Origin: Acidimicrobiia bacterium
Lineage (GTDB): Bacteria; Actinomycetota; Acidimicrobiia; Spongiisociales; ZC4RG35
Assembly: GCA_041744375.1 (NCBI GenBank)
Contig: JBGTLA010000053.1
Location: forward strand, 44,536-108,535
Direction: 5' to 3'
Length of the DNA: 64,000 nt
The notes under the pieces are model-generated. The model was not told where the DNA came from, made no database searches, and saw only the letters and a program-made list of their open reading frames with translations. Within the stretch, counting starts at the first letter, position 1; each line of letters opens with the position of its first letter. This document shows positions 42,155 to 61,741 of this stretch, one piece after another. Made by a program: the position numbers and the translations under genes.

Positions 42155-42164
42155 AGGAGTCGTA

Positions 42165-42794: not shown

Positions 42795-42816
42795 GCTCGA
42801 GGTCGGAGTCCGGCTG

Positions 42817-43041: not shown

Positions 43042-43042
43042 G

Positions 43043-43468
43043 TCAGGCACCTGCCCTCTCGAGCTCGTCGATCACTGTCGACACCGCGGATGCGACTTGG
43101 GGAGAGAGTTCGCTCCCTACTTCGAAGCGGGCACCTTCGATCCCATAGATGTCGAGGCGGGCGGGAAGGCGGTGTACCGCGCGCGCCAGTTCGACGATCT
43201 CGGCCAACCCGAAGGAATGGGATGAGGCAAAACTGCGGGTCGGTAATCGGTCGGCGATGGCGTCGAACCGCACGACGGTGCCGGGCAGCCGGCCGGAGCG
43301 GATGGCGTCGACCACCGTCACGTCTTCTTCGCCTTCCCACAGATCCATGAGATCGGAGCAGTCGCTCCTCGCCACCGACGGGACCGATGTGAGGCGCCGG
43401 GCGACGAGGACCCCGGCGGCGTCGTCGCCACGATCCGGGTGCCCGAGACCGATGACCAGACGACCCAT
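43043..43468 (-). CDS. Hydrogenase maturation endopeptidase (HycI/HoxW-like)
   Basis: 'LVIGLGHPDRGDDAAG' metal-binding motif. The ATG lies 2 nt after the large-subunit stop. Confidence 0.75.
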   Translation of the reverse strand: MGRLVIGLGHPDRGDDAAGVLVARRLTSVPSVARSDCSDLMDLWEGEEDVTVVDAIRSGRLPGTVVRFDAIADRLPTRSFASSHSFGLAEIVELARAVHRLPARLDIYGIEGARFEVGSELSPQVASAVSTVIDELERAGA

Positions 43469-43470
43469 CG

Positions 43471-46347: not shown

Positions 46348-46373
46348 CGTCCCGGTCGGGACCCTTGTCTGGG

Positions 46374-46831
46374 TCACGTCCCTGGCTCCTTGTAGAGGTC
46401 GAGGAGGCGGAGGCGAGCCTGGTGGAGGCGGCGGACGGCTTCTTTGGCCACCGCTCGGTGCACGTTGAGCGCCAGGGCGGTGTCGTGGTCGCATCTCGTT
46501 CGGACCGCTTCGGCGTCGAAGGAGATGACGGTGGTGGCGGCCAGGGCTCGCGCTCGCCAGTTCCACCTGTAATGGGGGAACAGCCAGCTCACTCCCAGAA
46601 GGTCACCTGGTCCCAGCGTCTCGATCAGCACCGCCGGCCGGGTGCGCGGTGGCACCTCGAGCCCCACCTTGCCATCTGTGATGAGAAAGAAGTTCTCGGC
46701 GGGACCGTCCTCCTCGAAGATCACCGTTCCCGTCTCGAATGTGACCTCCTCGGCTACCGACTCCAAGAACCTGAAGCTGTCCTCGGAGAGGTCGGCCAGC
46801 AGCTGGGAGTTGACGCGCAGCTCTTCGAGAC

Positions 46832-46835
<4 letters not shown>
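46374..46835 (-). CDS. Standalone cNMP-binding domain protein embedded in the hydrogenase operon
   Basis: 153 aa with a CAP-type beta-roll ('[25 protein letters not shown]', '[10 protein letters not shown]') and no DNA-binding domain. Its ATG overlaps the hydB stop (ATGA) and its stop lies 24 nt before the gamma-subunit ATG. Confidence 0.7.
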
Positions 46836-47944
<1,109 letters not shown>

Positions 47945-47983
47945 AACGAGGCTATCGATGTCATTGTGAAGATGACGGCCCTC

Positions 47984-48667
47984 TCACCAATTCGGCCTGG
48001 GAACTCCGTACGGTCGGGTTTCTTCGGAGGGACGAGTGTCATCGACCATATAGCCGACGGCACTTTCGACCTCCATCACGCCGTCGACTCCGGCAGTGAG
48101 GTCTTCCAACAGCCTCGCCTCCCTCAGGGTGGGGACGGTGCCCGTCAGCTCCACCCGCCCGTCGTCGACCGTAACCGACACGTTCTTGGGGTCGAGCAGC
48201 ATCACCTGTCCGATCAGGCGGTGGCGAATTTCTTGCTCGATGGCATGATCGGGTCGGGCAAAGACGGCCAGTACGTCGGAACGAGAAACGACGCCGAGGA
48301 GGTGGCCGTCTTCGTCGATGACGGGCAGTCGCTTGACGTTCTTGCGATCCATCTTCCGAGCGGCAGCCCTGTGGCTCATGTCTGGTGCAATGGAGATGAC
48401 GTGGCGGGTCATGGCCTCTCCGACCGTTTCGGCGGTGAGCCGCCGGGTCTTACGATCGAACAACGTGGCAACGAGGCCGGCGCGTTGGCCCGACGAGGCC
48501 CTTTCCACGAAATCGGCCTCGGTCAGCATTCCCACGACGCGACCCTCACCGTCGACGACGGGAAGCCCGCTCACCCCGCGCCCGCTCATCAATCGGGCCG
48601 CCTCTTTGAGCGACGTGCTCTCCTCCACGGTGACGACATCGGTCGTCATCAGGTCCCTGGTTTTCAT
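47984..48667 (-). CDS. CBS-pair plus BON domain protein
   Basis: Two CBS motifs ('LMTTDVVTV...GLPVVDGEGRVVGMLTEAD', 'AMTRHVISIAPD...LPVIDEDGHLLGVVSRSD') and a C-terminal BON-like segment. Lies 37 nt upstream of hydB. Confidence 0.7.
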   Translation of the reverse strand: MKTRDLMTTDVVTVEESTSLKEAARLMSGRGVSGLPVVDGEGRVVGMLTEADFVERASSGQRAGLVATLFDRKTRRLTAETVGEAMTRHVISIAPDMSHRAAARKMDRKNVKRLPVIDEDGHLLGVVSRSDVLAVFARPDHAIEQEIRHRLIGQVMLLDPKNVSVTVDDGRVELTGTVPTLREARLLEDLTAGVDGVMEVESAVGYMVDDTRPSEETRPYGVPRPNW

Positions 48668-48892
48668 GTCCTCCTCGCTTCCGTTCCTCTCAGGATGGGG
48701 GCTGGGGGTTGGCGCCGCTAGGGCCTTTGGCCTCTCGAGTCGGGCCGGTGGTCCCGTCTCGCTCTGCAGGAGCACGCCCGGATCACGCCCTCGGTCTCAT
48801 TGAGACGGTCTTCCTCGTCGAGTGGGACCTCTGCCTCTAGGCGACGGGGAGGTACGGTCGCATGCTGTCGACATCGCGAGAAAGGAGAGCGG

Positions 48893-49480
48893 ATGTACGG
48901 AGATGATATCGACAACGGTTGGGATGAGCCTGAACCCGTGGTGGACCTCCCTCCGACCGGCATCGACTTCGAGGTCGACATGGTTTCGACGATAGCCGGA
49001 GAGGTCGACTCCACGACAGCCGTTCCCGCAGGAATCGTGTCGCCGAATGAGGTGACCTTCCTGGCCGACTCCGCCGAGGTCGACGATGCCCTCATCGAAT
49101 TCGTCGAACTCGTGAATGCGCGGGACCTCGACGGCCTGGCTGATCTGTTGGCTCCGGAGGTAGCCGCCGGTCTCCTCGGTGCGACGTCTCGGGCCGCCGT
49201 CCTCGAGGGGCTCGACGAGTTTTTCGCTGCCAACCCGACATCGGTGGTCACCCGCGGTGATCTCGGCGTCGATCCCATCGCCGTCGTCTGGTCGTACGAC
49301 CCGGACCAGGAGCGATACGGCATGGTGGGCTACTTCACCGTCGAGGTTGCAGAGTCCGACGAAACCCGGATAGAGCGGTTGGACTTTGTGGATGAGATCC
49401 CCGACTGGCCGGAACTGGTGGTCGAGACGCCGGAAACGGCCGAGCGTCCCGAATGGCAGAGCTGGGACACGAACACCTGA
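48893..49480 (+). CDS. Acidic hypothetical protein
   Basis: 195 aa with AAGGAG RBS before ATG 48893. Sits directly upstream of the sigma-factor gene. No family recognised. Confidence 0.45.
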   Translation: MYGDDIDNGWDEPEPVVDLPPTGIDFEVDMVSTIAGEVDSTTAVPAGIVSPNEVTFLADSAEVDDALIEFVELVNARDLDGLADLLAPEVAAGLLGATSRAAVLEGLDEFFAANPTSVVTRGDLGVDPIAVVWSYDPDQERYGMVGYFTVEVAESDETRIERLDFVDEIPDWPELVVETPETAERPEWQSWDTNT

Positions 49481-49633
49481 TCCGTGGAGGGGGGTACGCC
49501 ATCGTGCTGCGATTTCTGCTCAACACCAGGCGTTGCGGGAAGAGGCAAGAACGCCGAGCTCTTCTTGCGCGCCCTCCTAGTTCCTGTCGCAGGTGCCGGG
49601 TTTGATTGAATACCGATTCGGTGATCCACTGGG

Positions 49634-50641
49634 TTGAGTCCACAATGGAATGAGACCGAAAGAACAGGTGTTCGTAGAAGCGTGGAGTACCAACAGACAA
49701 GAACAAAGCGCCATCGTCCGATCGACTTCGCCTCGTCCGGCGTGACACAGGACGTTCTCGGCCAGTATCTCGAGGGTGTCGGGCAACTCGGCCTGCTCAC
49801 AGCCGAAGACGAGGTTCGACTTGCACAGACGATGGAAGCAGGGATCGAAGCGGGCACACTGCTCAACTCCGGCAAGGTCGTCTCAGCCTCCGAGCGGATG
49901 CGCTTGCAGCGCGCCGTCGACGATGGTCGTCGCGCTCGCGAGAAGTTCATCGAGGCGAATCTGCGGCTGGTGGTAGCCAACGCTCGCCGCTACTCGGGAG
50001 CCGACGTCGAGATGACTGAGCTCATCCAAGAGGGCAACCTCGGATTGATCACGGCCGTCGAACGTTTCGACTGGCGTCGGGGTTTCAAGTTTTCGACCTA
50101 CGCCACGTGGTGGATCCGACAGGCCATGCAGCGGGCAAGGGCCAGCCTCGGTGGCTCGTTGCGGATCCCGGCAGCGGTATTCGACATCCTTCCGACCGTG
50201 CGGGCAGCAGCCGAGCGCTTGCAGGGAGCCACCGGCGCCGCCCCCGGGGCCGTCGACATCGCCGAAGCAACCGGAATTCCCACCCGCGAGGTGGAAAAGG
50301 CCTTGTCTGTCACGACGACGGTTGCCCTCGAAGAGCCGATCGGAGAAGACGGGGCGTCCTTGGGAGACCTCATCGCCGACCCCGATGCGATCGATCCGGC
50401 AACCGAAACCGAACGCCGAGTCATGGCCGAACACGTCCGCAGGGGCGTGGATACCTTGCCGCCCTTGCAGCGCCAGATCCTCGAACTGCGATTCGGGTTC
50501 ACAGAAGACGCTCCCACCAGTATCGCCCAGATCGCCCGGGCGACACATCTGTCGGAACGCCAGGCCCGAATCTACCTCTCCGAGGCCTTGGAGTCGCTGC
50601 GCGACCGCCTAGCCGACGTCGAAGAGATGCGGGTCGCCTGA
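49634..50641 (+). CDS. RNA polymerase sigma-70 family factor (group 2/3, SigB-like)
   Basis: Region 1.2 'YLEGVGQLGLLTAEDEVRLA', region 2.4 'TYATWWIRQA' and region 4.2 'IAQIARATHLSERQARIYLSEAL'. Confidence 0.85.
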   Translation: MSPQWNETERTGVRRSVEYQQTRTKRHRPIDFASSGVTQDVLGQYLEGVGQLGLLTAEDEVRLAQTMEAGIEAGTLLNSGKVVSASERMRLQRAVDDGRRAREKFIEANLRLVVANARRYSGADVEMTELIQEGNLGLITAVERFDWRRGFKFSTYATWWIRQAMQRARASLGGSLRIPAAVFDILPTVRAAAERLQGATGAAPGAVDIAEATGIPTREVEKALSVTTTVALEEPIGEDGASLGDLIADPDAIDPATETERRVMAEHVRRGVDTLPPLQRQILELRFGFTEDAPTSIAQIARATHLSERQARIYLSEALESLRDRLADVEEMRVA

Positions 50642-50726
50642 GGGGAGCATTTCCGGGACAGCGTTGACAGGTCGTTCCAGCCACCGACGACTTGGGCCTC
50701 CGCTGTTGGCCAACAGCCCGACTTCC

Positions 50727-51071
50727 TCAGGTCATCGCCTCGCGTGCTTCGGTGTAGGCCTTCTCCACCTGCCGGAAGACGGGACTCAAGTCGACGAGCT
50801 TGTCGGCGAAGGCGTCGCGGACCATGCCGGGTACAGGGCTCAGTTCTTTGCGGGCACTCTCGAGAGCTGCTCGCAACCGCTCCATGCGCGGCGCCAGTTC
50901 GTCTCGCATCTCCATGCGACCCAGTGCCACCTCGAGTTGCAGTTGTTCGATCCTCGTCTCCCAGGTGTTCATCTGGGTGTCCGTCAGCTGCTTGGAAAGT
51001 GACTCGACCTTGCGCTCGAGAGACTCCACCTGCTGTCGCAGGCTGTCCAGGGTGGTGTCGACGGTGTTCAT
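50727..51071 (-). CDS. Coiled-coil hypothetical protein
   Basis: 114 aa with a heptad-rich sequence. GGAGG with a 4-nt spacer before ATG 51071. Confidence 0.45.
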   Translation of the reverse strand: MNTVDTTLDSLRQQVESLERKVESLSKQLTDTQMNTWETRIEQLQLEVALGRMEMRDELAPRMERLRAALESARKELSPVPGMVRDAFADKLVDLSPVFRQVEKAYTEAREAMT

Positions 51072-51158
51072 CTCTCCTCCTATCGGTTGCGTGCTCGCCA
51101 TGTTCCGTTGCGGGATGCTCCCGATACCAGGGTCGAGAGTCCCGATGGTGGGGTGAGG

Positions 51159-52079
51159 TCACTCGCGGAGCCTGACCGGGTATTCCCGGAGGTTGATCTG
51201 GCTTCCGTCCTCGGCGAATGCCTCCCAGACGATGAGCGCACCGAACTGGTCGCGGTCTATCTGGTAGTTGACATCCATCGCGAAGTCGCCCCAGCACCCG
51301 GTGCCACACGACGCCGTCACCGTCTCCTCGAAGAGGGGCAGGCCGTCGTCATCGGTCAATGTCAAATAAAAAACTGCCTCGAACACGTTGGCTACTCCCA
51401 CGACGGTGACGGGACTGTCCACCGGCTGACCCCAGGCCGGCCTGTCCACGAAGATCGCCGGGAGCTGGTCGATGTAGTCCTGTCGCGTCTGGGGACCATC
51501 CAAGACGATCCCCTCACTCGAGAAGGTATCCACCTGTGCTCCATCGACGACCAGGGTGACCCGGTCGATGTCTTGGTAGCGGGTGAGCGTGTACACGACT
51601 TGGGCCAAACGACCGAACATGGCGGCCGAACCTCCTCCGGAGGCATATTCACCAGACAGGTCGACGGTGGCTACGCCGTTTTCCCAGGTGACACCCAAGA
51701 GTCTGGTTCCGACGGGGATGGCGCTTGAAATCGCCGGCAATCCGGCAGTCTCATCGTCGGTGGGCCCAGCGAGGAGAGCAGCCATGGCGGCCTGAGGAGT
51801 GTCCGCTCCCGACGAACCCCGAAAGACCGGAACCAACCGAGGCCCAAGGGATTCTTCGCCGACGTCGTCGACGAAGAAGTAGGCCACCGGACCATCCGCT
51901 CCTTCGATGGTCGTCGTAGGGGTGGTAGTCGCGGGCTGTGTCGATGGGGGCGTGGTGAGGGGCGGCCCGCTCGTGGTGGCGCCCGTCGGCGTTCCACATG
52001 CCGAAACCGCGAGCATCGCAAGGGCGGCGACGGCGACCGATACGGGGGGGAGGTGGTTGAGTGGGCCACCTGCTGACAT
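51159..52079 (-). CDS. Lipoprotein with GerMN-like domains
   Basis: Signal peptide with lipobox 'LAVSACG', a Thr/Pro-rich linker, then a GerMN-like region ('VTLVVDGAQVDTF'). Confidence 0.55.
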   Translation of the reverse strand: MSAGGPLNHLPPVSVAVAALAMLAVSACGTPTGATTSGPPLTTPPSTQPATTTPTTTIEGADGPVAYFFVDDVGEESLGPRLVPVFRGSSGADTPQAAMAALLAGPTDDETAGLPAISSAIPVGTRLLGVTWENGVATVDLSGEYASGGGSAAMFGRLAQVVYTLTRYQDIDRVTLVVDGAQVDTFSSEGIVLDGPQTRQDYIDQLPAIFVDRPAWGQPVDSPVTVVGVANVFEAVFYLTLTDDDGLPLFEETVTASCGTGCWGDFAMDVNYQIDRDQFGALIVWEAFAEDGSQINLREYPVRLRE

Positions 52080-52204
52080 GGCTCTCCTTGTCTGTCTGGT
52101 CCTGATCATCAGGCATCTCGATGCAGGGGAGTAGAGCCGCAAGTCACTTCTAGTGGAGGGGTCGGCGGCCTCTCGGCGGTGCCCGCTCCGAGACCCGGAC
52201 ATCC

Positions 52205-53338
52205 CTACTCGGGTTCGGTCAGACCGAGCTCGTCCGAGCGGCGAACCCAACGGGCGACGTCCCGGGATGTGATGATCCCTACGACTTCGCGACCGTTCAT
52301 TACCAGCACGCGATGTTCCTCGGATTCGTCGAGGAGGTGCATCACCTCTTCGAGGGCGGCGTCGACCGCCACCTTGGGCGCGTCGTCGAGTCGGGTCATG
52401 ACCGACCACACCTGGATGATTGGCCATTGGTCGCGCGGCACCTGGCGGACAGCTCGTAGGGTGAGGATCCCGCTCGTGGTGCCCTCGTCATCGTGCACTG
52501 GAAAGGCGGAGTGGTCGAAGCGAAGGAAGTAGTCGTCGACCGCCTCTTGCACCGTCGTGCCGGTCGAGAGCGCTACCAGGCGAGGGGACATCACGTCGGC
52601 CGCCACCATGCCTTCGAACAGACGCCGAATGATCATCTGTTGCCCGGACACGGCGGCAGCCGAGAACAAGAACCAACCGATGGCTGCGTACCACAGGCCT
52701 CCGAGGTTGCCGCCGAACACCTCCAACAGGCCGAGTCCGATCAGTAATGATGCTATGACCTTGCCGCCCGTGGTGGCTGCTTTGGTGGCCCGGTCCATGC
52801 TGCCGGTGATCTGCCAGATGAACGACCGGAGAACCCTCCCACCGTCGAGCGGGAAACCGGGGAGCATGTTGAACACTCCCAGGGCGAGGTTGATCCACCC
52901 GAGGTGACCGAAGCCGTAGCGGACCGTCGCTGGGAGCACGTCACCGGTGAGGTTGACCAGCGACCAGAAAACACCGGCCAGTCCGATGCTCGTGATCGGC
53001 CCCACGACGGCAATCGCGAACTCTTCTCGGGCAGAGCGCGATTCCTGGCTCGTCTTGGTGACGCCCCCGAATATGAAAAGCGTGATCCCCTCGACGGGAA
53101 TTCCCAGCCGGCGAGCCATGAGCGAGTGACTGAGCTCGTGCAGGACGACGCTGACGAAGAAGAGGATCGCAGTCCCCAAGCCGAGAAGGATGGCGGCAGC
53201 TCGGGCAATCTCGGTGAAGGTCACTTCGAACAGGGTGTAGAAGGACCATGCCAGCAGAAGGGCGATGATGAACCACGATCGGTCCACCGTTACTTCGATG
53301 CCCAGCCACTTTCCCAGGCTGAATCCGTTTCCGAACAC
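52205..53338 (-). CDS. Site-2 protease (M50) with C-terminal CBS pair
   Basis: 'HELSHSL' zinc motif within transmembrane helices, plus a C-terminal CBS pair. Confidence 0.8.
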   Translation of the reverse strand: MFGNGFSLGKWLGIEVTVDRSWFIIALLLAWSFYTLFEVTFTEIARAAAILLGLGTAILFFVSVVLHELSHSLMARRLGIPVEGITLFIFGGVTKTSQESRSAREEFAIAVVGPITSIGLAGVFWSLVNLTGDVLPATVRYGFGHLGWINLALGVFNMLPGFPLDGGRVLRSFIWQITGSMDRATKAATTGGKVIASLLIGLGLLEVFGGNLGGLWYAAIGWFLFSAAAVSGQQMIIRRLFEGMVAADVMSPRLVALSTGTTVQEAVDDYFLRFDHSAFPVHDDEGTTSGILTLRAVRQVPRDQWPIIQVWSVMTRLDDAPKVAVDAALEEVMHLLDESEEHRVLVMNGREVVGIITSRDVARWVRRSDELGLTEPE

Positions 53339-53391
53339 GCTGTTACCTTCCTCTTGGTCCGCTCGCCGCGGTCGGTTTCACGGTTCGGCCT

Positions 53392-54669
53392 TCACCCTTT
53401 TGACTCGGGGGCTTGGAGTGCCCGTTTCACACGCAGGCGACGCACCGCCCGGTTCCGCACGTCGACCGACTCCAAGATCCAACCTTCGATCTCGATCTCC
53501 TCCCCAGGGTATTCGGGAATTCGACCGAGGCGGTCGATGAAGAGCCCCGCCACCGTGGTGTAGGCCCCTTGCGGGAGGTACACGCCGATATCATCGAGGT
53601 CATGGATGGGAAAGGCCCCTTCCAGGAGAAGGGAGCCGTCGGGGAGATGGACCACGGCCTTGACATCGGGGTCGGCATCGTCGTAGATCTCCCCAACGAG
53701 CTCTTCGACGAGGTCTTCGACCGACACAACCCCCTGCACTCCTCCGTGCTCGTCGACGACGATGGCCAGTTGCTCGCGCGCCTCCTGAAGACGCTTGAGG
53801 GCGGCGACCACCGGGATCACTTCGGGCAAGAACACGGCAGGGCGCACGATCTCGCTCAGGTGCAGGCCCGGTTGAGTGATCAGATCGCGCAGCGAAACCA
53901 TTCCCAACACCTCGTCGAGACTTCCATCCACGACGGGTGCTCGAGTGTGACCGTGATCGGCCAGTCGACGGGCGGCGTCCACGGCCTGCTCGTCGGCCTG
54001 GAGGGCAAACACCTGCCCGCGCGGAACGAGTACTTGGCGAAGCAGTCTGTCTCCGATCTCGAAAGCCCCCGAGATGATCCTGCGCTGCTCGATGCTGAAG
54101 GCCGTTTGGGCCGCCACCATGTCGGCCAGCTCCTGTTGGGTGATCTCGATGCGATCGTGGCTCGGGTCGCCACCCAGAAGACGGACCACGAGGTTGGTGC
54201 CGGCACCGAGAACCCAAACGACGGGGCGGGTGAGCTGGGCGAGTGCCGACAGCGGACGAGCGGCGAGAAGTCCCCAACGTTCTGCACGCTGCATCGCCAT
54301 GCGCTTGGGCGCCAGTTCTCCCAACACGAGCATCACGAAAGTGAGTGAGATGGTCACCAGGAGGATGGCAACCGGCTGGGCGCCGGCGCCCAAGAATCCG
54401 AGTGGTTCCACGAGAGGCTGGGCCAGAGAGACGGCCGCTACCGCCGAGGCCAAGAAGCCGGCCAGGGTGATCCCGATCTGGATCGTGGCGAGGAACCGAT
54501 TGGGGTCACCTATGAGCCGAGCCAGCGTTCGACCCCGTGCGCTCTGCTCGGCGAGTCGCGCCACCTGGCTCTCCCGGAGGGAGATGAGGGCGATCTCGCT
54601 GCCGGCGAACAAGGCGTTGAAGAGGACCAACGCACCCAACAAGGCGAGTTGGGGGAGCACCTCAGGCAT
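53392..54669 (-). CDS. CNNM/CorC-HlyC family transporter (DUF21-CBS-CorC_HlyC)
   Basis: N-terminal DUF21 transmembrane domain, CBS pair and C-terminal CorC_HlyC domain. Confidence 0.8.
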   Translation of the reverse strand: MPEVLPQLALLGALVLFNALFAGSEIALISLRESQVARLAEQSARGRTLARLIGDPNRFLATIQIGITLAGFLASAVAAVSLAQPLVEPLGFLGAGAQPVAILLVTISLTFVMLVLGELAPKRMAMQRAERWGLLAARPLSALAQLTRPVVWVLGAGTNLVVRLLGGDPSHDRIEITQQELADMVAAQTAFSIEQRRIISGAFEIGDRLLRQVLVPRGQVFALQADEQAVDAARRLADHGHTRAPVVDGSLDEVLGMVSLRDLITQPGLHLSEIVRPAVFLPEVIPVVAALKRLQEAREQLAIVVDEHGGVQGVVSVEDLVEELVGEIYDDADPDVKAVVHLPDGSLLLEGAFPIHDLDDIGVYLPQGAYTTVAGLFIDRLGRIPEYPGEEIEIEGWILESVDVRNRAVRRLRVKRALQAPESKG

Positions 54670-54887
54670 CTATGACTCCCGGTCGGTTGCAGTCGTTGTA
54701 CAACATAGGAGGCGAACCACCGCCGGGACCTTTCGGCCCTCGAAGGGCCGAAAGGTCCCTACTCGTTCCAACACCCCTCGATCATCTGGGGGCGCGGCGG
54801 CGCAAGCGTGCCCGCGGCCATCGGGAGGTGGACGATGAACCTACCGAATCGATGATGATTCCGGCTTGCCACGATCGCGGCCGGTTG

Positions 54888-55274
54888 TTAGGTGGTGCCG
54901 AGGGGGGCCGGGGCTCCGCCACCACCGAGGGCGTGGCGCTCATGGAACCTGATGATCGTCGTCGGACTGTCGCCGGACTCCACCGAGATGGCGTGGACGA
55001 TTCCCTCTCGCTCCTCGATCCACACCCTGGCAGGGCGATGGATGGCGTGTCGGAGTACCACGTCGGCTTGTTCTCGTCTCCCTCCGACCGATACCTCGAT
55101 GACGTCGTTGCGTGAGTCGTATGTGACGCCGTGCCACGCCAGGTGGTCTGCCGCCACTTGATCACCTACGTCTTCGCCCACCACCTCGATCGTGACGTCG
55201 GCTGTGTTGGGAGCCGGAAGAATGCGGTGCATGTCGTCCACCGCTTTGAGTGGCACTTCTCTGGTATTGCTCAT
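54888..55274 (-). CDS. Hypothetical protein
   Basis: 128 aa with GGAG 4 nt upstream of the ATG. No family confidently recognised. Confidence 0.4.
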   Translation of the reverse strand: MSNTREVPLKAVDDMHRILPAPNTADVTIEVVGEDVGDQVAADHLAWHGVTYDSRNDVIEVSVGGRREQADVVLRHAIHRPARVWIEEREGIVHAISVESGDSPTTIIRFHERHALGGGGAPAPLGTT

Positions 55275-55460
55275 GCGAGGCTCCGTGAGTCGATGTCCTC
55301 ACATGGTCTTGCGAGAAGACGAGAACGACCAGAGTCGAAGGTCCTGACGATGTTCCTGGTCTGAATCTGGCTCTCCCCGGCTTCAGCGGAACGACAGAAA
55401 TGCCGATCCCTCAGGTGAAATCCACCGTGTGGAGCCGTCATCTCGCCAGGATGGACAAGG

Positions 55461-56435
55461 ATGCCGATCGTCAACGTACAGCGACTGAGCTCGGATCCGG
55501 TGCTCGGGCCGGGTTCGGTGCCCGGCTATGGCGCCATATTTAACGCCGGAGTCACTTTCCACGAAGGCCGGTTTCACCTCTTTGCGCGCGGGGTGCGAAG
55601 CGGATACCGGCGCAATCAGGGCGCAGGAGCCCGCTTCTTGGACTATCGCTCCGACGTCCTCTTGTTCAGCTCGGGCAACGGAGTCGACTACACATTCAGC
55701 CGAGTGCTGGCCGAAGGATCCGACGAGGGTGCGGTGTGGTCGTATGAGGACCCCCGGGTTCAATGGGTCGATGCCGACGGTTCTTGTTACATGACCTACA
55801 CCGATCTCCCCGCCCCCCACACCGGAGAACCATGGCGAATCGGCCTACACCGTCTCGTCCCCCGCAACGGAACTTTCGAACTTAACCGCACCTCGGGCCG
55901 CGTGGTCGGCCCACCGGGAACTCCCGACAAGGACGCCGTGATCTTCGACCTCACGGGCGGGGGTGTCGCCATGATTCACCGGGTCGCCCCCGACATCCAG
56001 ATCGCCGTCTTCGAGTCCATGGAGGACCTCATCGATCCTCCTGCGGGCTACTGGGAGGAGCATCTCGAGACGCTGGAGGATCATGTGATCATCCGTCCGT
56101 CCGACGGCGCTCTGGGAGTCGGGGCCGGGGCTCCGCCGATCGCGACGCCAGCAGGACTCCTCTTCTTCTATCACGAGCGGGACGCGTCCGGCGTTTACAC
56201 CGCTCGGGTCGCCTTGCTCGATCCGGGGAGTGGTCACCCCACCGGGGTTGCTCCCCTTCCGATTCTCGTTCCCGAGCTGTCGTGGGAGCGGCATGGTGAC
56301 GTTGACGACGTCGTCTTCGTGCAGGGTGCTCACCGCTTGGAGGACGGTCGAATCTACTTGACCTACGGCGCGGCGGATCGCGCCGTAGGCGTGGGAGTCG
56401 TCGACGAAGGCGAGCTGCTCGACCTCCTCGCCTGA
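55461..56435 (+). CDS. GH130 family glycoside phosphorylase/hydrolase
   Basis: 324 aa with 'GRFHLFARG', 'EDPRV', 'DGSCYMTYTD' and 'YGAADRAVG', matching the GH130 beta-propeller. Confidence 0.75.
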   Translation: MPIVNVQRLSSDPVLGPGSVPGYGAIFNAGVTFHEGRFHLFARGVRSGYRRNQGAGARFLDYRSDVLLFSSGNGVDYTFSRVLAEGSDEGAVWSYEDPRVQWVDADGSCYMTYTDLPAPHTGEPWRIGLHRLVPRNGTFELNRTSGRVVGPPGTPDKDAVIFDLTGGGVAMIHRVAPDIQIAVFESMEDLIDPPAGYWEEHLETLEDHVIIRPSDGALGVGAGAPPIATPAGLLFFYHERDASGVYTARVALLDPGSGHPTGVAPLPILVPELSWERHGDVDDVVFVQGAHRLEDGRIYLTYGAADRAVGVGVVDEGELLDLLA

Positions 56436-56553
56436 TGGGCAAGCCGCCCTCTAGGGCAGTGTTGAACAATTCGTTCCAGCCGTCGACTGCAGTCCTCCGA
56501 GCAGGGACTTTGCCGAGCTACTGGACGGGCTTTCATTGTTATTCAACACCGTC

Positions 56554-57702
56554 CTAGGCCACCCCGGCGGTGGCTGCCGCGTCAACCACCCGACCCGCCA
56601 ATGCCTCACACTGGCGAGCTACCGACGACCAGCTCAGCTCTGGCGCCGAGCGTCGGGCCGCCCAGGCCGAAGCCCTAAGAGCCTGGGGACGGGTCAGATA
56701 GTTCTCCAGCGCGTTCGCTATCGCCAGAGGGTCCCGGTGGGGGACAGTCCGCCCGGCACCATCCGCCAGCATCTCGACGGCGTGGGGGAAGGCCGTTGCC
56801 ACCACCGGTAGGCCGGCGCCTATGGCTTCTACCAGCACTCCTGATGTGACCTGCTCGGTGGAGTCGTATGGAAGCAGGGCCAGGTCCGCCTTTCCGATCA
56901 GGTCGGCCAGTTGGGCCGGTGCCAGGTACCTCTCGTCGATGTCGACCATGTGGGCGACATCGAGGTCGTCGACGAGGGCGAACAGGCTGTTGCGGTAGGC
57001 CTCACCTTGTGCTCTCAAGACATTGGGATGGGTGGCGCCTTGCACCACGTAGCGGGGGAGGGGTCGAAGGTCGCGGAGACGATCCATTGCTCGGATACCC
57101 CATTCGATGCCTTTGCCGGGTCCTACCAGGCCCCACGTCACGATGGTGGGCCGTGTGTGCCGGTTCCGGGTTACCAGACGCGGGTGGCAGTGGGCACCGT
57201 GGGGGATCACAGCCACCTTGTGGGGGTCGACGCGAGTGGTCTGGACGAGCATCTGTTGGGCCGCATGAGACATCACGACCAGCTTCTCGGATCGCCTGGC
57301 CAACGCCTCGACGATCGACCCCTGGCCCGGGGTGGGGTTGCTGAGGACGGTGTGCATGGTCGTCACGACGGGAACCGGGACTGCTTCGCACAGATCGAGG
57401 ACCCGACGGCCGTCGTCGGGTCCGAAGATGCCGAACTCATGCTGAATCCAGAGCACTTCGTAATGCCGGGCAAGGCGGGACACCTCCTCTGGCCAGGTGC
57501 TCGAGTCGACACAAGTCTCGCCGACCACGAGAGGGTCGAGGGAGATGGTGGTGTCCATGGCGGAGTGCACCCGCGCCACCCCCAAGCCCTCTGAACTCTG
57601 GCGAACGGAGGCCACGCTTTCCACCAGGGCCCGGGTGAAGGTGGCGAGCCCGCATGCGGTTGGTGGGTAGGTGCTGGCGAACAGGAGCTGTGGGTGTCGC
57701 AT
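56554..57702 (-). CDS. Glycosyltransferase family 4 (paralog of the gene at 32923..34107)
   Basis: N-terminus 'FASTYPPTACGLATFT' parallels 'FVSTYPPTVCGLATYT' in the first GT4. Start at the Met of 'MRHPQ' after GGAGGGAGG. Confidence 0.75.
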   Translation of the reverse strand: MRHPQLLFASTYPPTACGLATFTRALVESVASVRQSSEGLGVARVHSAMDTTISLDPLVVGETCVDSSTWPEEVSRLARHYEVLWIQHEFGIFGPDDGRRVLDLCEAVPVPVVTTMHTVLSNPTPGQGSIVEALARRSEKLVVMSHAAQQMLVQTTRVDPHKVAVIPHGAHCHPRLVTRNRHTRPTIVTWGLVGPGKGIEWGIRAMDRLRDLRPLPRYVVQGATHPNVLRAQGEAYRNSLFALVDDLDVAHMVDIDERYLAPAQLADLIGKADLALLPYDSTEQVTSGVLVEAIGAGLPVVATAFPHAVEMLADGAGRTVPHRDPLAIANALENYLTRPQALRASAWAARRSAPELSWSSVARQCEALAGRVVDAAATAGVA

Positions 57703-58282
57703 GCTCTCATCCTCCCTCCGCAGTTTGTTTCTCATCTTCGATGGATACCTCTTTGTACGAGGGCTGAAACGGCCATAACAGGGCCAGAAGTCCCGCCGTC
57801 GGATCAGGCCCATCGGGAAAATTCACAACGGGTCTTATTCCCCTGGCCGCGTACAGCCACCTGATCCACTATTGGTCTCATGGAGGGCTCGCACATCCCG
57901 GACGACGAAGTGCGGTGGGCGATCGATGCCGCCGGGCTCGACCTCGCTGAGGAGCCGTTCGGCTTTGCCCAGCTGCAGCGAGGCATAGAAAACGAGCTGC
58001 AGCTCAGGCCTCGGGCGGCTCGCAGCGAGCGCACGCCGGCCATCGTGCTCGCCGCCACCCTGATCGCAGTGTCGCGACTGCGCCACGACCTGGAGCACTA
58101 CGCGCGACTCGCCCAGACGTCGGCGGTGAGCGAGGCCGCTCGTGCCGTTGCCCGGGAAACCGGATTCGGCGTCGTTCATCATCGCCCGGTGGATCGACAT
58201 CGCCGTGAAGGCTGAAGTTGTTCAGCGCCTCGACAAGCGGTAGCTTCCGCCGAGTCTCTCTCACCTAGGCGAAATACTCTTC

Positions 58283-60940
58283 ATGGCTGACCAGCTGGCG
58301 AACGACGTTGCTGATTGGGTGACGATGCCCACCGAGGAAGTGGCCGGTGCCCTCGACGCCGGTCCGGAGGGTCTCAGCGCAGAAGAGGTGGCCGCACGCC
58401 AAGAGTCGTTTGGTCCCAACCTCCTGACCGAGGCCGACCCGCCGGGTGTTCTGGCGGTGCTGTTGCACCAGTTCCAGAGTCCGCTCGTATACATACTGCT
58501 GGTTGCCACGGCTGTCACCCTATTGATCGAGGAGTACGTCGACGCCGGTGTGATCTTCGCCGTCTTGGCTCTCAACGCCGGGATCGGCTTCTTCCAGGAG
58601 CGCAAGGCCGAGAACGCCGTCCGGGCCCTCATGGGTCTGGTCGCGCCAAAGGCTCATGTGGTCCGGTCGGGTGCGGACCGGGTGGTGGAGAGCAGCGAAC
58701 TCGTCCCGGGGGACCTCGTTTTGGTGGAATCGGGTCAGCGGGTGCCGGCCGATCTCCGCCTCGTATCGACCACCTCTCTGGCATGTGACGAGTCGCTCCT
58801 GACGGGCGAATCGACTCCGGTGGCCAAGCGAGCGGAGCCTTTGACCTCAGACTTGCCGCTCGGTGATCGAATCAACATGGCGTTCACCGGCACCGTGGTC
58901 ACCTCCGGGAGGGGTCGGGGGTATGTAGTGGCCACCGCTGACATCACCGAACTGGGCAAGATCGCCACCCAGATTCGCGAAGAGGTGGAGCCGGCCACCC
59001 CCCTCCAGCAGCGTATGACCCGCTTCGCCCGTATCGTTGGGGTGGCCGTGGCCCTGGCGGCGTTGGCCTCATTGCCGCTGGGGTTGATGCGGGGAGAGAC
59101 GCTGTCGGATATCTTCTTGGTGGGTGTGGCGCTGGCGGTGTCGGCCATACCCGAGGGATTGCCGGTCGTGTTCACGATCACACTGGCGGTGGGTGTGCAG
59201 CGGATGGCGCGGCGGAACGCCATCATTCGGCGACTCCCGGCCGTGGAGACTCTGGGCAGCATCACTGTCATCGGTTCCGACAAGACGGGGACGCTCACCA
59301 CCAACGAGATGACCGTGCAAGAGGTGTGGGCGGGCGGGCAGACCGTTTCCATCAGTGAACACGACGATGATGTGGGTGAGGCAATGCGCCTGACCCTGCT
59401 GGCGGGAGTGCTGGCCAATGAGGCGAGCATCCGGGTCACTGGTGACGAGGTCGTGACAACCGGGGACCCGACCGAGACCGCGCTCTTGGTTTCAGCTCGC
59501 CGTATGGGTGTCGATCCGAGCGTCGAGCGCCGGCTCTGGACATCGAGTGCTGAGATCCCATTCGAGCCGGAGAATCGGTTCGCCGCCAGCTTCCGAACAG
59601 ACGGTGAGCGTCACCTGGTGCTGGTCAAGGGCGCCCCCGAGCGGGTGCTGGACATGTGCGCCGACATGGCGACCGATTCCGGGTCGGCACCCCTCGACCC
59701 TCAGCTCGTCAAGGCCACAAACGCCGAGATGGCATCTCGCGGTCTGAGGGTGCTGGCCATGGCCTACCGGGACGACCCGAGCCCCCCTGGGGAGGTGGAA
59801 GAGCCCCAGGGCCTCACATTCCTAGGTTTGCAGGGAATGATCGACCCTCCCCGTGAGGGAGTGAAGGAAGCGATTGCCGGCTGTCAGCGCAGCGGCATCA
59901 GAGTGGTGATGATCACCGGCGACCACGCCGACACGGGTCTGGCCATCGCCACGGACGTCGGCCTCGCCTCCGCCGGCGACCCAGTCGTGACCGGCGAGGA
60001 CATGGAGCAGATGGATGACGAGGTCCTCCGAGACCGGGTTGGTGACGTGGCTGTCTTCGCCCGGGTCTCGCCTCAGCACAAGCTGCGAGTTGTTCGTGCC
60101 CTGCAAGCGAACTCAGAGGTGGTGGCCGTGACGGGTGACGGGGTGAACGACGCTCCCGCCCTCAAGGTGGCCGACGTGGGTGTCGCCATGGGCGAATCGG
60201 GTACCGACGTCGCCCGGGGCGCGGCCGACATGGTGTTGGCCGACGACAATTTCGTCAGCATCTATGAGTCGGTGCGGCAGGGTCGTGTCACTTTCGACAA
60301 CCTCAGAAAGGTCACGTTCTTTCTCATCTCCAGCGGCGCCGCCGAAATCCTGGTCATCCTGGTGGCGGTGGCGGCGGGGTGGCCTCTGCCGATGCTTCCC
60401 GCTCAGATCCTGTGGTTGAACCTCGTGACCAACGGTGTCCAAGATGTCGCCCTCGCCTTCGAACCTGGCGAGAAAGGAATCATCGATCGTCCGCCGCGTA
60501 GGCGTAACGAGGGCATCATCTCCCGTCTTCTCTGGGAGCGTACCGCCCTGACCGGGGTGGTGATGGCCGCCGGAACGCTCGGCATCTTCGGCTGGGTTCT
60601 CGACAGAACCGGTTCTCTCACTCAAGCTCAAAGTGCAGCCCTCACCGCGCTGGTGATCTTCCAGGCCGTTCACGCCGGGAATGCACGCTCCGAACACACG
60701 TCGGTCTTCAGGATCTCCCCGTTCTCGAACCCGTTCCTCCTCACCGCGGTGGCCGGAGCGGTGGGCCTGCACATCGGGGCCCTCTACCTTCCCTTCACCC
60801 AGTTCGTTCTCAGGGTCGAGCCGATCGATCTCACCACCTGGATGGTCATACTGGCCGTGAGCCTGTCGGTGCTGACGGCGGTTGAGGCCGACAAGTACAT
60901 CCGCCGGCGCTTCAGCCGATCAGGGGTCGGAGCGACCTGA
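58283..60940 (+). CDS. P-type cation-transporting ATPase (P2-type, CtpF/Ca2+-ATPase-like)
   Basis: 'DKTGTLT' phosphorylation motif, 'TGDGVNDAPAL' hinge and about 10 transmembrane helices in 885 aa. Confidence 0.9.
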   Translation: MADQLANDVADWVTMPTEEVAGALDAGPEGLSAEEVAARQESFGPNLLTEADPPGVLAVLLHQFQSPLVYILLVATAVTLLIEEYVDAGVIFAVLALNAGIGFFQERKAENAVRALMGLVAPKAHVVRSGADRVVESSELVPGDLVLVESGQRVPADLRLVSTTSLACDESLLTGESTPVAKRAEPLTSDLPLGDRINMAFTGTVVTSGRGRGYVVATADITELGKIATQIREEVEPATPLQQRMTRFARIVGVAVALAALASLPLGLMRGETLSDIFLVGVALAVSAIPEGLPVVFTITLAVGVQRMARRNAIIRRLPAVETLGSITVIGSDKTGTLTTNEMTVQEVWAGGQTVSISEHDDDVGEAMRLTLLAGVLANEASIRVTGDEVVTTGDPTETALLVSARRMGVDPSVERRLWTSSAEIPFEPENRFAASFRTDGERHLVLVKGAPERVLDMCADMATDSGSAPLDPQLVKATNAEMASRGLRVLAMAYRDDPSPPGEVEEPQGLTFLGLQGMIDPPREGVKEAIAGCQRSGIRVVMITGDHADTGLAIATDVGLASAGDPVVTGEDMEQMDDEVLRDRVGDVAVFARVSPQHKLRVVRALQANSEVVAVTGDGVNDAPALKVADVGVAMGESGTDVARGAADMVLADDNFVSIYESVRQGRVTFDNLRKVTFFLISSGAAEILVILVAVAAGWPLPMLPAQILWLNLVTNGVQDVALAFEPGEKGIIDRPPRRRNEGIISRLLWERTALTGVVMAAGTLGIFGWVLDRTGSLTQAQSAALTALVIFQAVHAGNARSEHTSVFRISPFSNPFLLTAVAGAVGLHIGALYLPFTQFVLRVEPIDLTTWMVILAVSLSVLTAVEADKYIRRRFSRSGVGAT

Positions 60941-61741
60941 GCCCTCGTCCTTGGATGGGGGAGGAACGATGAGGACGGCTGCTGTTGCCAGACGAGCGAT
61001 CGCGCCGGCGGTGGACCCCACGAGGACCCGCCGGAGGCCGGTGTGGCCCCGGGTGCCCATGACCAGCAGGTGAGCCGGAAGGGAATTGGCGTGCTCCAGG
61101 AGGGTGGCGGCCACCTGCTCTTCGGCCTCGGCGAGAACGATCTCGGGGTCGAACTCGGCCAGGGTCTGAGCGGCCCTCTCCAATCCCGTGGTTACCACCT
61201 GGCGGTCGCTGGCCAGCGTGTCGACCACACCGAGGACCGAGACGTGACTGGCCTGAGCCGCCAACGGCAACCGAGCGAATGTTTCGATCGCCCGGTGAGC
61301 ATGTTGCGATCCGTCGGTGCACACGAGGATGTGCTGAGCGGAGTCTGGAGTCTTGGCGATGACGAGGGGGGCGGGGGGGTGGTGGAGCAGGTGCTCGGCA
61401 GTGCTCCCCAGCAAAAGAGCTTTCAACCCAAAGCGCCCCTTCGGCCCCACCACTATCAGGTCGGCGTCGTGGCGGGAATCGAGGACCAGGCGGGCGTCGG
61501 CCGTCGCCTGCAGATGCCGGACGTCGCCGAGGCCACATTCGGCGAATGGCTTGCGGGGTGTGTCGGGCTGCCATCGGTGGAGCCTGACCGGGAGATCATC
61601 GCTCCACAAGTCTCCGGGGTCGTAGCGGGTATTGACGACTTCTACGGCCCAGCCGGACCAGCGCTGATGGTTGATCCACAGCCATGCTCGGTCGGCATAG
61701 GTCGAACCGTCGTCACCGAACACGATCAGACGTTCATTCAT
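60920..61741 (-). CDS. Universal stress protein (tandem UspA domains)
   Basis: Two USP domains with ATP-binding 'VMGTRGHTG...GSTA' style motifs. Confidence 0.8.
   Translation of the reverse strand: MNERLIVFGDDGSTYADRAWLWINHQRWSGWAVEVVNTRYDPGDLWSDDLPVRLHRWQPDTPRKPFAECGLGDVRHLQATADARLVLDSRHDADLIVVGPKGRFGLKALLLGSTAEHLLHHPPAPLVIAKTPDSAQHILVCTDGSQHAHRAIETFARLPLAAQASHVSVLGVVDTLASDRQVVTTGLERAAQTLAEFDPEIVLAEAEEQVAATLLEHANSLPAHLLVMGTRGHTGLRRVLVGSTAGAIARLATAAVLIVPPPSKDEGSGRSDP

Follow-up and report, generated by a model that had tools for sequence, protein, structure and literature searches.

The gene pair GH130b and GT4b, at the second of two glycosyltransferase/GH130 loci in the 64,000-nucleotide stretch of Acidimicrobiia DNA analysed here (the window), is best explained as a reduced copy of a conserved module in which a special GT4 glycosyltransferase is accompanied by an (alpha/alpha)6-barrel protein and by one to three GH130 proteins. 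The module's most likely function is to synthesise, and later mobilise again, a soluble mannose-containing glycoside or a short beta-1,2-oligomannoside in the cytoplasm, and we estimate the probability of this reading at roughly 55%. The donor, acceptor, product and direction of flux given below, and a role as reserve or stress protectant, are what we infer from the sequences. In the window the complete version of the module would be locus 1, comprising GT4a, the barrel protein, GH130a and a glucosylsucrose-synthase-like enzyme, GT4c.

GH130b (55461-56435, plus strand) is a 324-aa protein of GH130 class B, identified by a match to PF04041 Glyco_hydro_130 over residues 19-323 (E 3.2e-29; 102 bits, cutoff 26), and is predicted to be a cytoplasmic beta-1,2-mannoside phosphorylase. 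It aligned over its full length with the beta-1,2-mannobiose phosphorylase Teth514_1789 (7FIP, E 1.5e-25) and with Teth514_1788 (9FJ8, E 4e-25); these two beta-1,2-mannoside phosphorylases are the closest solved enzymes to both GH130b and GH130a. Residues R43, E96, D97, K157, R174, H238 and D306 were invariant in the GH130b orthologues (n=19) and in class-B sequences (n=90). D97, in the segment YEDPR, corresponds to the proton-donor Asp (D104 in UhgbMP numbering) and aligns with VEDPRI of 7FIP, and the invariant R174 and H238 are the equivalents of the phosphate-binding residues R168 and H231.

The same positions are kept in the other GH130s of the module. The proton-donor Asp, the phosphate-binding Arg and His and an E/K pair at the +1 subsite (E for Y103 and K for R150; E96/K157 in GH130b, E289/K343 in GH130a) were invariant in 55 class-A and 90 class-B sequences, and were retained in nearly all of 67 class-C sequences. 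The E/K pair has been tied to beta-1,2 linkages in GH130 (Li et al. 2020, PMC7660257), and GH130 phosphorylases are recognised by basic phosphate-binding residues and the lack of a signal peptide (PMC7660257, PMC4599007). When the translations were read by eye, no N-terminal hydrophobic segment was seen in any protein of the module. GH130b and GH130a share their catalytic Asp, E/K pair and phosphate-binding residues with the Teth514 enzymes, but identity to those enzymes is low (92-121 bits). Against the equivalog model for beta-1,2-mannobiose phosphorylase (NCBIfam NF052550, cutoff 450 bits) GH130b scored 122.4 and GH130a 142.3 bits, which marks both as relatives of the characterised enzyme and not equivalogs. 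Since these scores lie far under the cutoff, substrate specificity may differ from that of the characterised enzymes.

GH130b and GT4b are convergent, as the first-pass annotation had described, and are separated by a spacer of 118 bp. An inverted repeat extends across this spacer (56451-56557, not assigned to a strand), with 19-nt arms at 56451-56469 and 56539-56557 that are 84% complementary, and the RNA has a predicted folding energy of -43.2 kcal/mol (z = -2.18). The repeat is a possible bidirectional terminator or RNA-stabilising hairpin; no canonical T-tract terminator was found in locus 2, and a scan for canonical promoters and terminators gave nothing useful there. Locus 2 also lacks a barrel gene and a class-C GH130, which are the usual companions of GH130b.

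GT4b (56554-57702, minus strand) is a 382-aa retaining GT-B glycosyltransferase. The longest open reading frame spans 56554-57813, whereas the orthologues and an identical 382-aa database protein (P0001) begin at the ATG at 57702. This ATG is preceded by GGAGGGAGGA, with a GGAGG Shine-Dalgarno sequence, and because the orthologue starts agree with it we take 57702, the start already chosen in the first-pass annotation, as the true one. GT4b matched PF00534 Glycos_transf_1 (43.9 bits), PF13692 Glyco_trans_1_4 (50.3) and PF13439 Glyco_transf_4 (30.2), all above cutoffs. Its AF2 model (pLDDT 89.4) has the GT-B fold, with a Glycos_transf_1 C-terminal domain and a GT4-type N-terminal domain. The top Foldseek matches were all GT4 enzymes, namely MshA, ManT (7QSG, the MMP mannosyltransferase), GlgM, PimA and SPS. 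In the C-terminal domain, where GT4 enzymes carry an EX7E motif, GT4b has E283-QVTSGVLV-E292, a spacing of eight residues; across the GT4b alignment the first position is E, D or T and the second E or D.

ManT is the best PDB match of GT4b at the sequence level and the second best by structure. This cytoplasmic GT4 assembles a mannose polymer inside the cell, and a dedicated glycosidase encoded nearby, the MmpH hydrolase, recycles it. The mycobacterial MMP system differs from the module in other respects: GT4b is only 20% identical to ManT (E 3e-6, over the C-terminal half), no methyltransferase genes are present here, and the partners are predicted phosphorylases acting on beta linkages rather than an alpha-endomannosidase. 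According to the structural comparison, the nearest relatives of GT4b (MshA, ManT, GlgM and SPS) act on soluble or intracellular acceptors, which suggests a soluble product.

The first gene of locus 1, GT4a (32899-34107, plus strand), encodes a 402-aa paralogue of GT4b. Across 377 residues the two proteins show 46% identity (E 6e-104), so their likeness extends beyond the near-duplicated N-terminal motif reported in the first-pass annotation; the start given there for GT4a, 32923, is an internal ATG. The motif reads FASTYPPTACGLATFT in GT4b and FVSTYPPTVCGLATYT in GT4a, and the consensus 'STYPPTxCG(L/I)ATF' was present in 89 of 90 members of the subfamily from many phyla, the sole exception having a truncated N-terminus. 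In the GT4b alignment S10, T11, P13, T15, C17, G18 and A20 are invariant. The possibility that the motif is generic to GT4 was rejected, as none of 33 other (GT4c-like) GT4 genes of the same loci carried it. The generic Pfam model of the GT4 N-terminal domain misses it, the match in GT4b starting only at residue 107. We defined the GT4 subfamily as the proteins that carry this N-terminal signature and are most similar to GT4a or GT4b.

The gene that follows GT4a, which it overlaps by 14 bp, had been overlooked in the first-pass annotation although it is the third conserved partner. It encodes unk362 (34094-35182, plus strand), a 362-aa protein of an unannotated family with 2932 representatives at E<=1e-10. 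No Pfam or NCBIfam match was found, and relaxing Pfam to E<=5 returned nothing, GlcNAc_2-epim included. The AF2 model (pLDDT 84.9) contains 12 helices and has the (alpha/alpha)6-barrel fold; Foldseek placed YPO2471 (7TEM) first (E 1.8e-13), followed by AGE-type epimerases and isomerases including cellobiose 2-epimerases, with TM scores of 0.6-0.72 to 7TEM and the cellobiose 2-epimerases. A profile of unk362 matched 7TEM alone among PDB sequences (E 4.5e-20). Membership of the AGE superfamily is unsupported at the sequence level, since that profile search recovered no AGE member, and the AGE catalytic His pair was not found in the family alignment, which has a single invariant His, H53.

An (alpha/alpha)6 protein of AGE fold next to a GH130 gene recalls the catabolic pairing of GH130 mannosylglucose phosphorylase with cellobiose/mannobiose 2-epimerase. 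However, the closest characterised structural relatives of unk362, which are epimerases and isomerases, share only about 12% identity with it, the comparison yielded no assignment of catalytic residues, and neither an AGE sequence match nor a Pfam GlcNAc_2-epim match was obtained. Moreover, the barrel protein of the module is fused to a glycosyltransferase in many phyla, never so in the catabolic pair, and the E/K pair of the GH130s predicts beta-1,2 and not beta-1,4 linkages.

GH130a (35146-36645, plus strand) is a long-form, 499-aa GH130 of class A in which PF04041 matches residues 275-495 only. It matched 9FJ8 with E 6e-34, and its N-terminal ~270 aa remained without a match in Pfam or the PDB at a cutoff as loose as E<=5. 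GH130a and GH130b are remote from each other (31% over 90 residues, E 1e-3). They belong to different classes and differ in length (499 versus 324 aa), and a recent duplication of one module was therefore rejected. The "second GH130/GT4 module" of the first-pass annotation accordingly stands for the GT4s, which are paralogous; the GH130s are not paralogous copies, and locus 2 combines a paralogous GT4 with a different GH130 class.

Locus 1 ends with GT4c (36661-37704, minus strand; likely start the ATG at 37704, the open reading frame extending to 37944), a GT4 of a different type without the subfamily motif. It is closely homologous to the glucosylsucrose synthase (alpha-1,2-glucosyltransferase) TeGSS (7FG9/8X3Q; residues 8-340 against 4-342, E 1.9e-70), whose structure 7FG9 has been reported (PMC9909042), and this activity is predicted for GT4c from sequence. 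GT4c-like genes are present in 33 loci. In 8 loci a gene for a HAD-IIB sugar-phosphate hydrolase accompanies GT4b-type or GH130b genes. Together with the structural neighbourhood of SPS and GT4b, these genes resemble compatible-solute pairs such as sucrose-P synthase/SPP and the TeGSS system (PMC9909042). The window lacks sucrose-P synthase and its phosphatase, and a compatible-solute role is what we infer from the resemblance. The likeness of GT4c to a compatible-solute enzyme, the HAD-IIB genes and the lack of hydrophobic N-termini suggest that the product is soluble and cytoplasmic.

Co-occurrence in other genomes was determined with the GT4 subfamily alignment as query and one genome per species, which gave 80 loci, 54 of them complete (at least 5 kb on both sides of the GT4). 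A GH130 gene lay within 3 kb of the GT4 in 46 of the 54 complete loci (85%), representing more than ten phyla, and 8 had the GT4 without any GH130. A homologue of unk362 adjoins the GT4 or is fused to it in 50 of 54. Class A was the GH130 partner in 54 of the 80 loci, loci of mixed type being counted. The reverse scan began with GH130b orthologues in metagenomes. Of 17 loci flanked by at least 2.5 kb on both sides, 11 contained the GT4, and of 41 loci extending at least 1.2 kb downstream, 30 contained the GT4 or the barrel partner; about a third of the GH130b loci in this reverse scan were without the GT4.

GT4 is one of the largest glycosyltransferase families and the convergent genes of locus 2 are not co-transcribed, as would be expected if common GT4 genes merely happened to lie beside GH130. 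That explanation is refuted by the genome scan, the reverse metagenome scan and the flank densities: the near flanks (up to 4 kb from the GT4) contained 72 GH130 genes in 565 kb, the outer flanks none in 681 kb. The GT4 is moreover fused to its partner in some genomes, and the convergent orientation of GT4 and GH130b is itself conserved in other loci. These results bear out the functional partnership favoured in the first-pass annotation, which had named a lack of co-occurrence beyond this genome and a motif generic to all GT4 as grounds for refuting it; neither was the case.

The arrangement of the genes supports the same view. Around GH130b orthologues the usual layout is class C (minus strand), class B (plus) and then the barrel gene and the GT4, both on the minus strand. 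The GT4 and the barrel protein form a single chain, about 740-990 aa long, in Bacteroidota, Verrucomicrobiota, Myxococcota, Acidobacteriota, Armatimonadota, Planctomycetota, Melainabacteria and Calditrichia. Two GH130b orthologues have such a fusion at their loci too, and for one of them a source gives the name Gaiellaceae. A barrel-GH130 fusion was also considered and rejected; the N-terminal-barrel fusions among long family members carry no Pfam domain, or GFO/IDH/MocA. GT4 clades co-segregate with GH130 classes. GT4b falls in a clade (96/100 NJ bootstrap) whose neighbours are GH130s of classes B, C and D, and GT4a groups with the GT4s of L083 (L083a), L013 and L003 (94/100) in a group whose GH130 is class A. 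The module is present in Actinomycetota (Mycobacterium, Frankia and Streptomyces among them), Acidobacteriota, Verrucomicrobiota, Bacteroidota and others.

In the nearest relative, L083 (69-80% identity), all six genes are contiguous, with order and orientation as in the window, where 17.5 kb separates the two loci. The first-pass annotation had missed this single cluster. The genes encoding Usp and DUF5335 adjoin the module in the window and in L084. A link to a general stress regulon was rejected, as a phmmer search of 168 loci turned up Usp in 5 of them and DUF5335 in 1; this stress-gene neighbourhood is local to the lineage, not general.

Between its two loci the window encodes a GT2, an acyltransferase and a hexapeptide transferase, a polyprenyl synthase is encoded upstream in L083, and JGI names some members of the subfamily 'polysaccharide biosynthesis protein PslF' or 'involved in cell wall biosynthesis'. 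The GT4 could then be a PslF-like mannosyltransferase of an envelope or extracellular polysaccharide pathway, with GH130 editing or trimming the nascent chain, which was the synthase-plus-editing idea of the first-pass annotation. We regard this as improbable. The PslF name was transferred automatically, the loci showed no psl-like neighbours, and no flippase, polymerase, export or initiating phosphoglycosyl-transferase gene recurs among the conserved neighbours. The intervening GT2 region is missing from the contiguous L083 cluster, no hydrophobic N-terminal signal or membrane segment was seen in the module proteins, and the phosphate required by phosphorylases is cytoplasmic (PMC7660257).

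GH130 beta-1,2-mannoside phosphorylases also adjoin a GT4 gene in Thermoanaerobacter sp. X-514, where the cluster Teth514_1785-1796 contains two GH130s, a Man1P guanylyltransferase, GT4 and an ABC transporter (Chiku et al. 2014, PMC4264767). This cluster, which also includes a GH5, has been read as one for uptake and salvage. By analogy, the GH130s, whose residues indicate phosphorylases yielding Man1P, might phosphorolyse imported beta-mannosides to alpha-Man1P and so to GDP-mannose, which the GT4 would spend on an unrelated glycan; the link would be a shared sugar-nucleotide pool and not a shared product. This appears unlikely, if less so than a role in the envelope. The module has none of the transporter, GH5 and guanylyltransferase genes and has the (alpha/alpha)6 protein instead. 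ORF clustering over 168 loci, with Pfam and NCBIfam scans, revealed no recurrent Man1P guanylyltransferase, transporter (solute-binding or permease) or phosphomannomutase genes. The recurrent neighbours were generic ABC ATPases, SDRs, GAF-ANTAR proteins, response regulators and the HAD-IIB hydrolase, and of these the only transport-related one was the generic ABC ATPase, in 22 loci at variable distance. Fusion or tight coupling of GT4 to the barrel protein (the 14-bp overlap in the window) argues for a shared substrate and not a shared pool, and the co-segregation of GT4 clades with GH130 classes is not predicted by a mere pool link.

For a cytoplasmic glycoside that the cell itself makes and re-mobilises, the following scheme may be proposed. 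The retaining GT4 would use a nucleotide sugar to place an alpha-linked primer on a small acceptor. The GH130s would then reversibly add beta-1,2-linked mannose from alpha-mannose-1-phosphate or remove it with phosphate, and since both steps would run on alpha-mannose-1-phosphate and phosphate, the store could be filled or drained without ATP. The barrel protein may hydrolyse or isomerise the leftover core. Locus 2, without a barrel protein of its own, probably borrows that of locus 1 or handles a simpler substrate. The pairing of a synthase with a recycling phosphorylase suggested in the first-pass annotation is compatible with the conserved phosphorylase residues; as retaining GT4s form alpha linkages and GH130s act on beta-mannosides, the two would not simply make and break one bond.

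In concept the scheme resembles the Leishmania mannogen cycle (GT108; Sernee 2019; Franceus 2024, PMC10913872), in which a cytoplasmic beta-1,2-mannan reserve is primed by a nucleotide sugar and five-bladed propeller enzymes extend or degrade it via alpha-Man1P and phosphate (PMC10913872). In the module, by contrast, the enzymes are GH130 and not GT108, priming would fall to a separate GT-B enzyme of GT4, and a beta-1,2-mannan in these bacteria is hypothetical. Beta-1,2 GH130 enzymes also show weak GDP-Man transferase activity (Ladeveze et al. 2025, PMC12814180). A bolder reading, which we advance tentatively as a doubtful possibility, is that more than ten phyla run an unrecognised mannogen-like cycle of cytoplasmic beta-1,2-mannoside as reserve or stress protectant, in which a bifunctional GT4-(alpha/alpha)6 enzyme primes and trims and up to three GH130s elongate or drain via mannose-1-phosphate.

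The biochemistry of beta-1,2 GH130 phosphorylases is well characterised, far better than the substrate they meet in nature and the role they have beyond gut glycan foraging; in Thermoanaerobacter the source of the beta-1,2-oligomannan was not found (Chiku et al. 2014, PMC4264767). Our literature searches on GH130 with GT4, gene cluster, compatible solute, DUF377 and YPO2471 did not find a description of the module. GH130s locked to a specific GT4, and a barrel protein fused to that GT4, point to an endogenous glycoside made by the cell, and several carriers are cultured strains and thus tractable systems for finding the product, such as Geothrix fermentans DSM 14018, Georgenia muralis, Mycolicibacterium stellerae CECT 8783 and Catenulispora yoronensis. 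The barrel family comprises about 3000 sequence clusters without a Pfam model, and the one structure solved in it, 7TEM, is without an assigned function. If the bolder reading is correct, the barrel protein would be the first of a new family of glycoside hydrolases or epimerases, and non-gut beta-1,2 GH130 phosphorylases would gain from the module the endogenous substrate and the physiological role that they have lacked.

The GH130 and GT4 genes of the second locus were confirmed by ORF analysis and Pfam as a convergent pair at 55461-57702. GH130b (55461-56435, plus strand; 324 aa) matched Pfam Glyco_hydro_130 (E 3.2e-29), and GT4b (56554-57702, minus strand) encodes 382 aa. The longest ORF of GT4b spans 56554-57813, and its start was placed at the ATG at 57702, where the orthologues and an identical 382-aa database entry begin and which is preceded by the ribosome-binding sequence GGAGGGAGGA. 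No other gene belongs to this locus. The 118 bp spacer is enclosed entirely by an inverted repeat (56451-56557) with 19-nt arms, 84% complementary and relatively AT-rich for a window of 64.5% G+C, which overlaps the stop codon of GT4b and folds with -43.2 kcal/mol (z = -2.2); it could act as a bidirectional terminator or as a palindrome for protein binding. The database proteins closest to those of the window are labelled Acidimicrobiia. Between GT4b and a P-type ATPase gene lie two overlapping small ORFs on opposite strands (57835-58215; 111 and 121 aa), both coding-like in codon-position GC and neither with a Pfam match. The locus is flanked by a DUF5335 gene (54888-55274) and a tandem-Usp protein gene (60920-61741), and DUF5335 and Usp also follow the module in the related database locus L084 (13356-14213). 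A general association was rejected, since 5 of 168 loci had Usp and 1 had DUF5335.

Locus 1 begins with GT4a (32899-34107), which overlaps by 14 bp the gene of unk362 (34094-35182), a 362-aa protein without Pfam or NCBIfam match. In GH130a (35146-36645, 499 aa) the GH130 domain is restricted to residues 275-495; for the N-terminal region of about 270 aa (35146-35955), neither Pfam nor PDB gave a match up to E<=5, and its length is conserved across phyla among partners of this long type (class A). GT4c (36661-37704), another kind of GT4, lies on the strand opposite to the rest of the locus. Its ORF reaches 37944, and its start is probably the ATG at 37704, since homologues do not match the long ORF over its first 80 codons. 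A 1587-aa ORF immediately upstream of the locus (27991-32754), which from its size and sequence may encode a large NAD-specific glutamate dehydrogenase, had no counterpart beside the module in the other loci compared. About 17.5 kb (37945-55460) separate GT4c from GH130b and encode a patatin-like lipase, an acyltransferase, a hexapeptide transferase, a GT2, a MarR regulator, CBS/BON proteins, a sigma-70 factor, a Germane/Gmad2 protein, an M50-CBS protease, a CNNM transporter, a DUF5335 protein and a four-gene group-3-like [NiFe]-hydrogenase set (43471-47944).

The first-pass annotation had regarded the GT4 of the second locus as a paralogue of that of the first. For the GT4s this held: GT4b and GT4a are close paralogues (46% identity over 377 residues, E 6e-104) and both quoted N-terminal motifs were found, whereas GH130b and GH130a can hardly be aligned (31% identity over 90 residues, E 1e-3). 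The motif is a signature of the subfamily and not of GT4 in general. Its core, (S/G)(T/D/N)Y.P(T/R)xCG(L/I)(A/G)TF, occurred in 89 of 90 subfamily members, the sole exception having a truncated N-terminus, and in 0 of 33 GT4c-like genes of the same loci. The generic Pfam model of the GT4 N-terminus matches GT4b only from residue 107, and at the sequence level solved GT4 structures match its C-terminal half only. The GT4b model is a GT-B enzyme (pLDDT 89.4), nearest in structure to MshA, ManT (methylmannose-polysaccharide mannosyltransferase), GlgM, PimA and sucrose-phosphate synthase.

Neighbour joining of 89 GT4 domains from the subfamily (100 bootstraps) separated a GT4b clade (96% support; window GT4b, L083b, L084, L081/82, L001, L088 and L002), whose neighbours are GH130s of class B (the GH130b type) or of two further types, C and D, from a group of GT4a, L083a, L013 and L003 (94%) with class A neighbours. 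GT4a and GT4b are therefore old paralogues, each tending to travel with its own kind of GH130. Basal positions in the tree are occupied by fusions of GT4 to unk362 found in other phyla.

The proposed partnership of GT4 and GH130 was examined beyond this genome with an alignment of 16 GT4-subfamily members (A1), searched against one genome per species. The 80 loci obtained came from Actinomycetota, Acidobacteriota, Verrucomicrobiota, Bacteroidota, Myxococcota, Armatimonadota, Planctomycetota, Melainabacteria and Calditrichia, and their ORFs were assigned by phmmer against the six window proteins of the two loci. In 46 of the 54 loci flanked by 5 kb or more on each side, a GH130 gene lay within 3 kb of the GT4, and in 50 of them unk362 adjoined or was fused to the GT4. 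Chance adjacency is excluded by these counts together with the distribution of GH130 genes, 72 of which lay no more than 4 kb from the GT4, in 565 kb of near flank, against 0 in 681 kb of outer flank.

A second scan, of metagenome contigs with an alignment of 19 GH130b orthologues (A3), also gave 80 loci. A recurrent layout consisted of a class C GH130 on the minus strand, GH130b on the plus strand, and unk362 and GT4 on the minus strand, the last two being one fused gene at some loci. Of the loci extending 2.5 kb or more in both directions, 11/17 contained the GT4; unk362 or GT4 was present in 30/41 that had at least 1.2 kb downstream, and the class C enzyme in 41/51 with sufficient upstream sequence. 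Individual look-ups of four GH130b orthologues agreed with the layout in three cases; the fourth gene lies beside a recombinase. Because this layout recurs, the convergent orientation is a conserved arrangement, and locus 2 of the window represents it minus unk362 and the class C enzyme.

The nearest relative is a soil MAG locus, L083 (identities: GT4b 69%, GH130b 80%, GT4c 77%, GH130a 73%, unk362 66%, GT4a 76%). There all six genes are contiguous, in the order and orientation of the window and with unrelated genes on both outer sides; the window differs from L083 (9146-10457) by the 17.5 kb between GT4c and GH130b, which may be an insertion in the window or a deletion in L083, and in this lineage the six genes behave as a single unit. 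L084 (GT4 59% identical) carries GT4, unk362, GH130b on the opposite strand, a GFO/IDH/MocA oxidoreductase, a class C GH130, DUF5335 and Usp. Its public gene calls (9155-11254) give two plus-strand ORFs of 455 and 238 aa without Pfam hit; tblastn located a unk362 homologue at 9209-10174 (plus) and a 66%-identical GH130b orthologue at 10193-11146 (minus), so that the missing calls look like a gene-calling error in high-GC DNA. In L081 and L082 (GT4 63%) a fourth GH130 type is followed by GT4 and a HAD-IIB hydrolase. Hydrolases of this family (sugar-phosphate phosphatase/phosphomannomutase type) lie beside GT4b-type or GH130b genes in 8 loci (L081:9332-10087, L082:5063-5818, L124:6682-7530, L151:6626-7555 and four more), suggesting a phosphorylated intermediate or Man1P/Man6P interconversion.

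The full length of GH130b can be aligned to two phosphorylases: Teth514_1789 (7FIP), which acts on beta-1,2-mannobiose, and Teth514_1788 (9FJ8), which acts on 1,2-beta-oligomannan. By published criteria (Li et al. 2020, PMC7660257; Ladeveze et al. 2025, PMC12814180), such enzymes have a proton-donor Asp and bind phosphate through an Arg and a His, and an E/K pair marks those for beta-1,2 linkages. The corresponding residues are D97, R174, H238, E96 and K157 in GH130b and D290, R361, H414, E289 and K343 in GH130a; they are invariant in 55 class A and 90 class B sequences and present in nearly all of 67 class C sequences. Since both proteins score far under the NCBIfam equivalog cut-offs, they are treated here as new subgroups of predicted beta-1,2-mannoside phosphorylases rather than as equivalogs of the characterised enzymes.

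The unk362 model is an (alpha/alpha)6 barrel (pLDDT 84.9). Among solved structures, only YPO2471 (7TEM; profile E 4.5e-20), an uncharacterised protein of Yersinia pestis, is related to it at the sequence level; in structural rank this protein is followed by AGE-type sugar epimerases/isomerases, with GH76 and GH9 barrels lower. The family is large, 2932 of 1.84 billion cluster representatives belonging to it at E<=1e-10; it includes many GT4-unk362 fusions and has no Pfam or NCBIfam model. NCBI names some members 'glycosyltransferase', perhaps because of the frequent fusion to GT4. One protein, P0506 (760 aa), is a fusion of unk362 to a GFO/IDH/MocA oxidoreductase, a separate gene for which lies inside the L084 module (11254-12255), and five other fusions with an N-terminal barrel (680-765 aa) have C-terminal halves without Pfam domain. 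GT4c is a close homologue of TeGSS (tll1591; E 2e-70), a glucosylsucrose synthase that acts as an alpha-1,2-glucosyltransferase and lengthens a soluble compatible solute (PMC9909042). In 33 loci the module comes with a GT4c-like gene.

Gene linkage, GT4-unk362 fusion, co-segregation of GT4 clades with GH130 classes and conservation of the phosphorylase residues are the observations behind a proposed cycle, in which the retaining GT4 would use a nucleotide sugar to form an alpha-linked primer, the GH130 enzymes would add or remove beta-1,2-mannose via alpha-Man1P and phosphate, and the barrel protein would handle the core. Its weak points are that a retaining GT4 and a beta-specific phosphorylase cannot share the same bond, that the barrel gene is absent from locus 2 and that not every locus shows the linkage. 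The two families could instead be linked by salvage through GDP-mannose, as proposed for Thermoanaerobacter, where a GT4 gene mentioned in a GH130 cluster is the sole precedent found (PMC4264767); however, neither the fusion nor the co-segregation of GT4 clades with GH130 classes would be expected from salvage, and the guanylyltransferase and transporter genes of the Thermoanaerobacter cluster were not recovered among the recurrent neighbours. An exopolysaccharide role of the GT4, with editing by GH130, is raised by automatic 'PslF' labels on homologues, but finds no supporting neighbour genes. Three observations favour a soluble cytoplasmic product rather than an envelope polymer: no genes for export or lipid carriers were recovered in the comparison of neighbours across loci, GT4c belongs to the glucosylsucrose-synthase type, and HAD-IIB hydrolases lie beside some GT4b-type genes. 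No N-terminal hydrophobic segment suggesting export was seen by eye in the translations of the module proteins.

Neither a GT4-barrel-GH130 module nor the barrel family was found described in the literature searched. The component families are known and the logic is akin to known synthesis/phosphorolysis cycles; it is like that of the mannogen cycle of Leishmania, although the enzyme families differ. The module would be of greater interest if its product proves to be a bacterial mannogen-like reserve.
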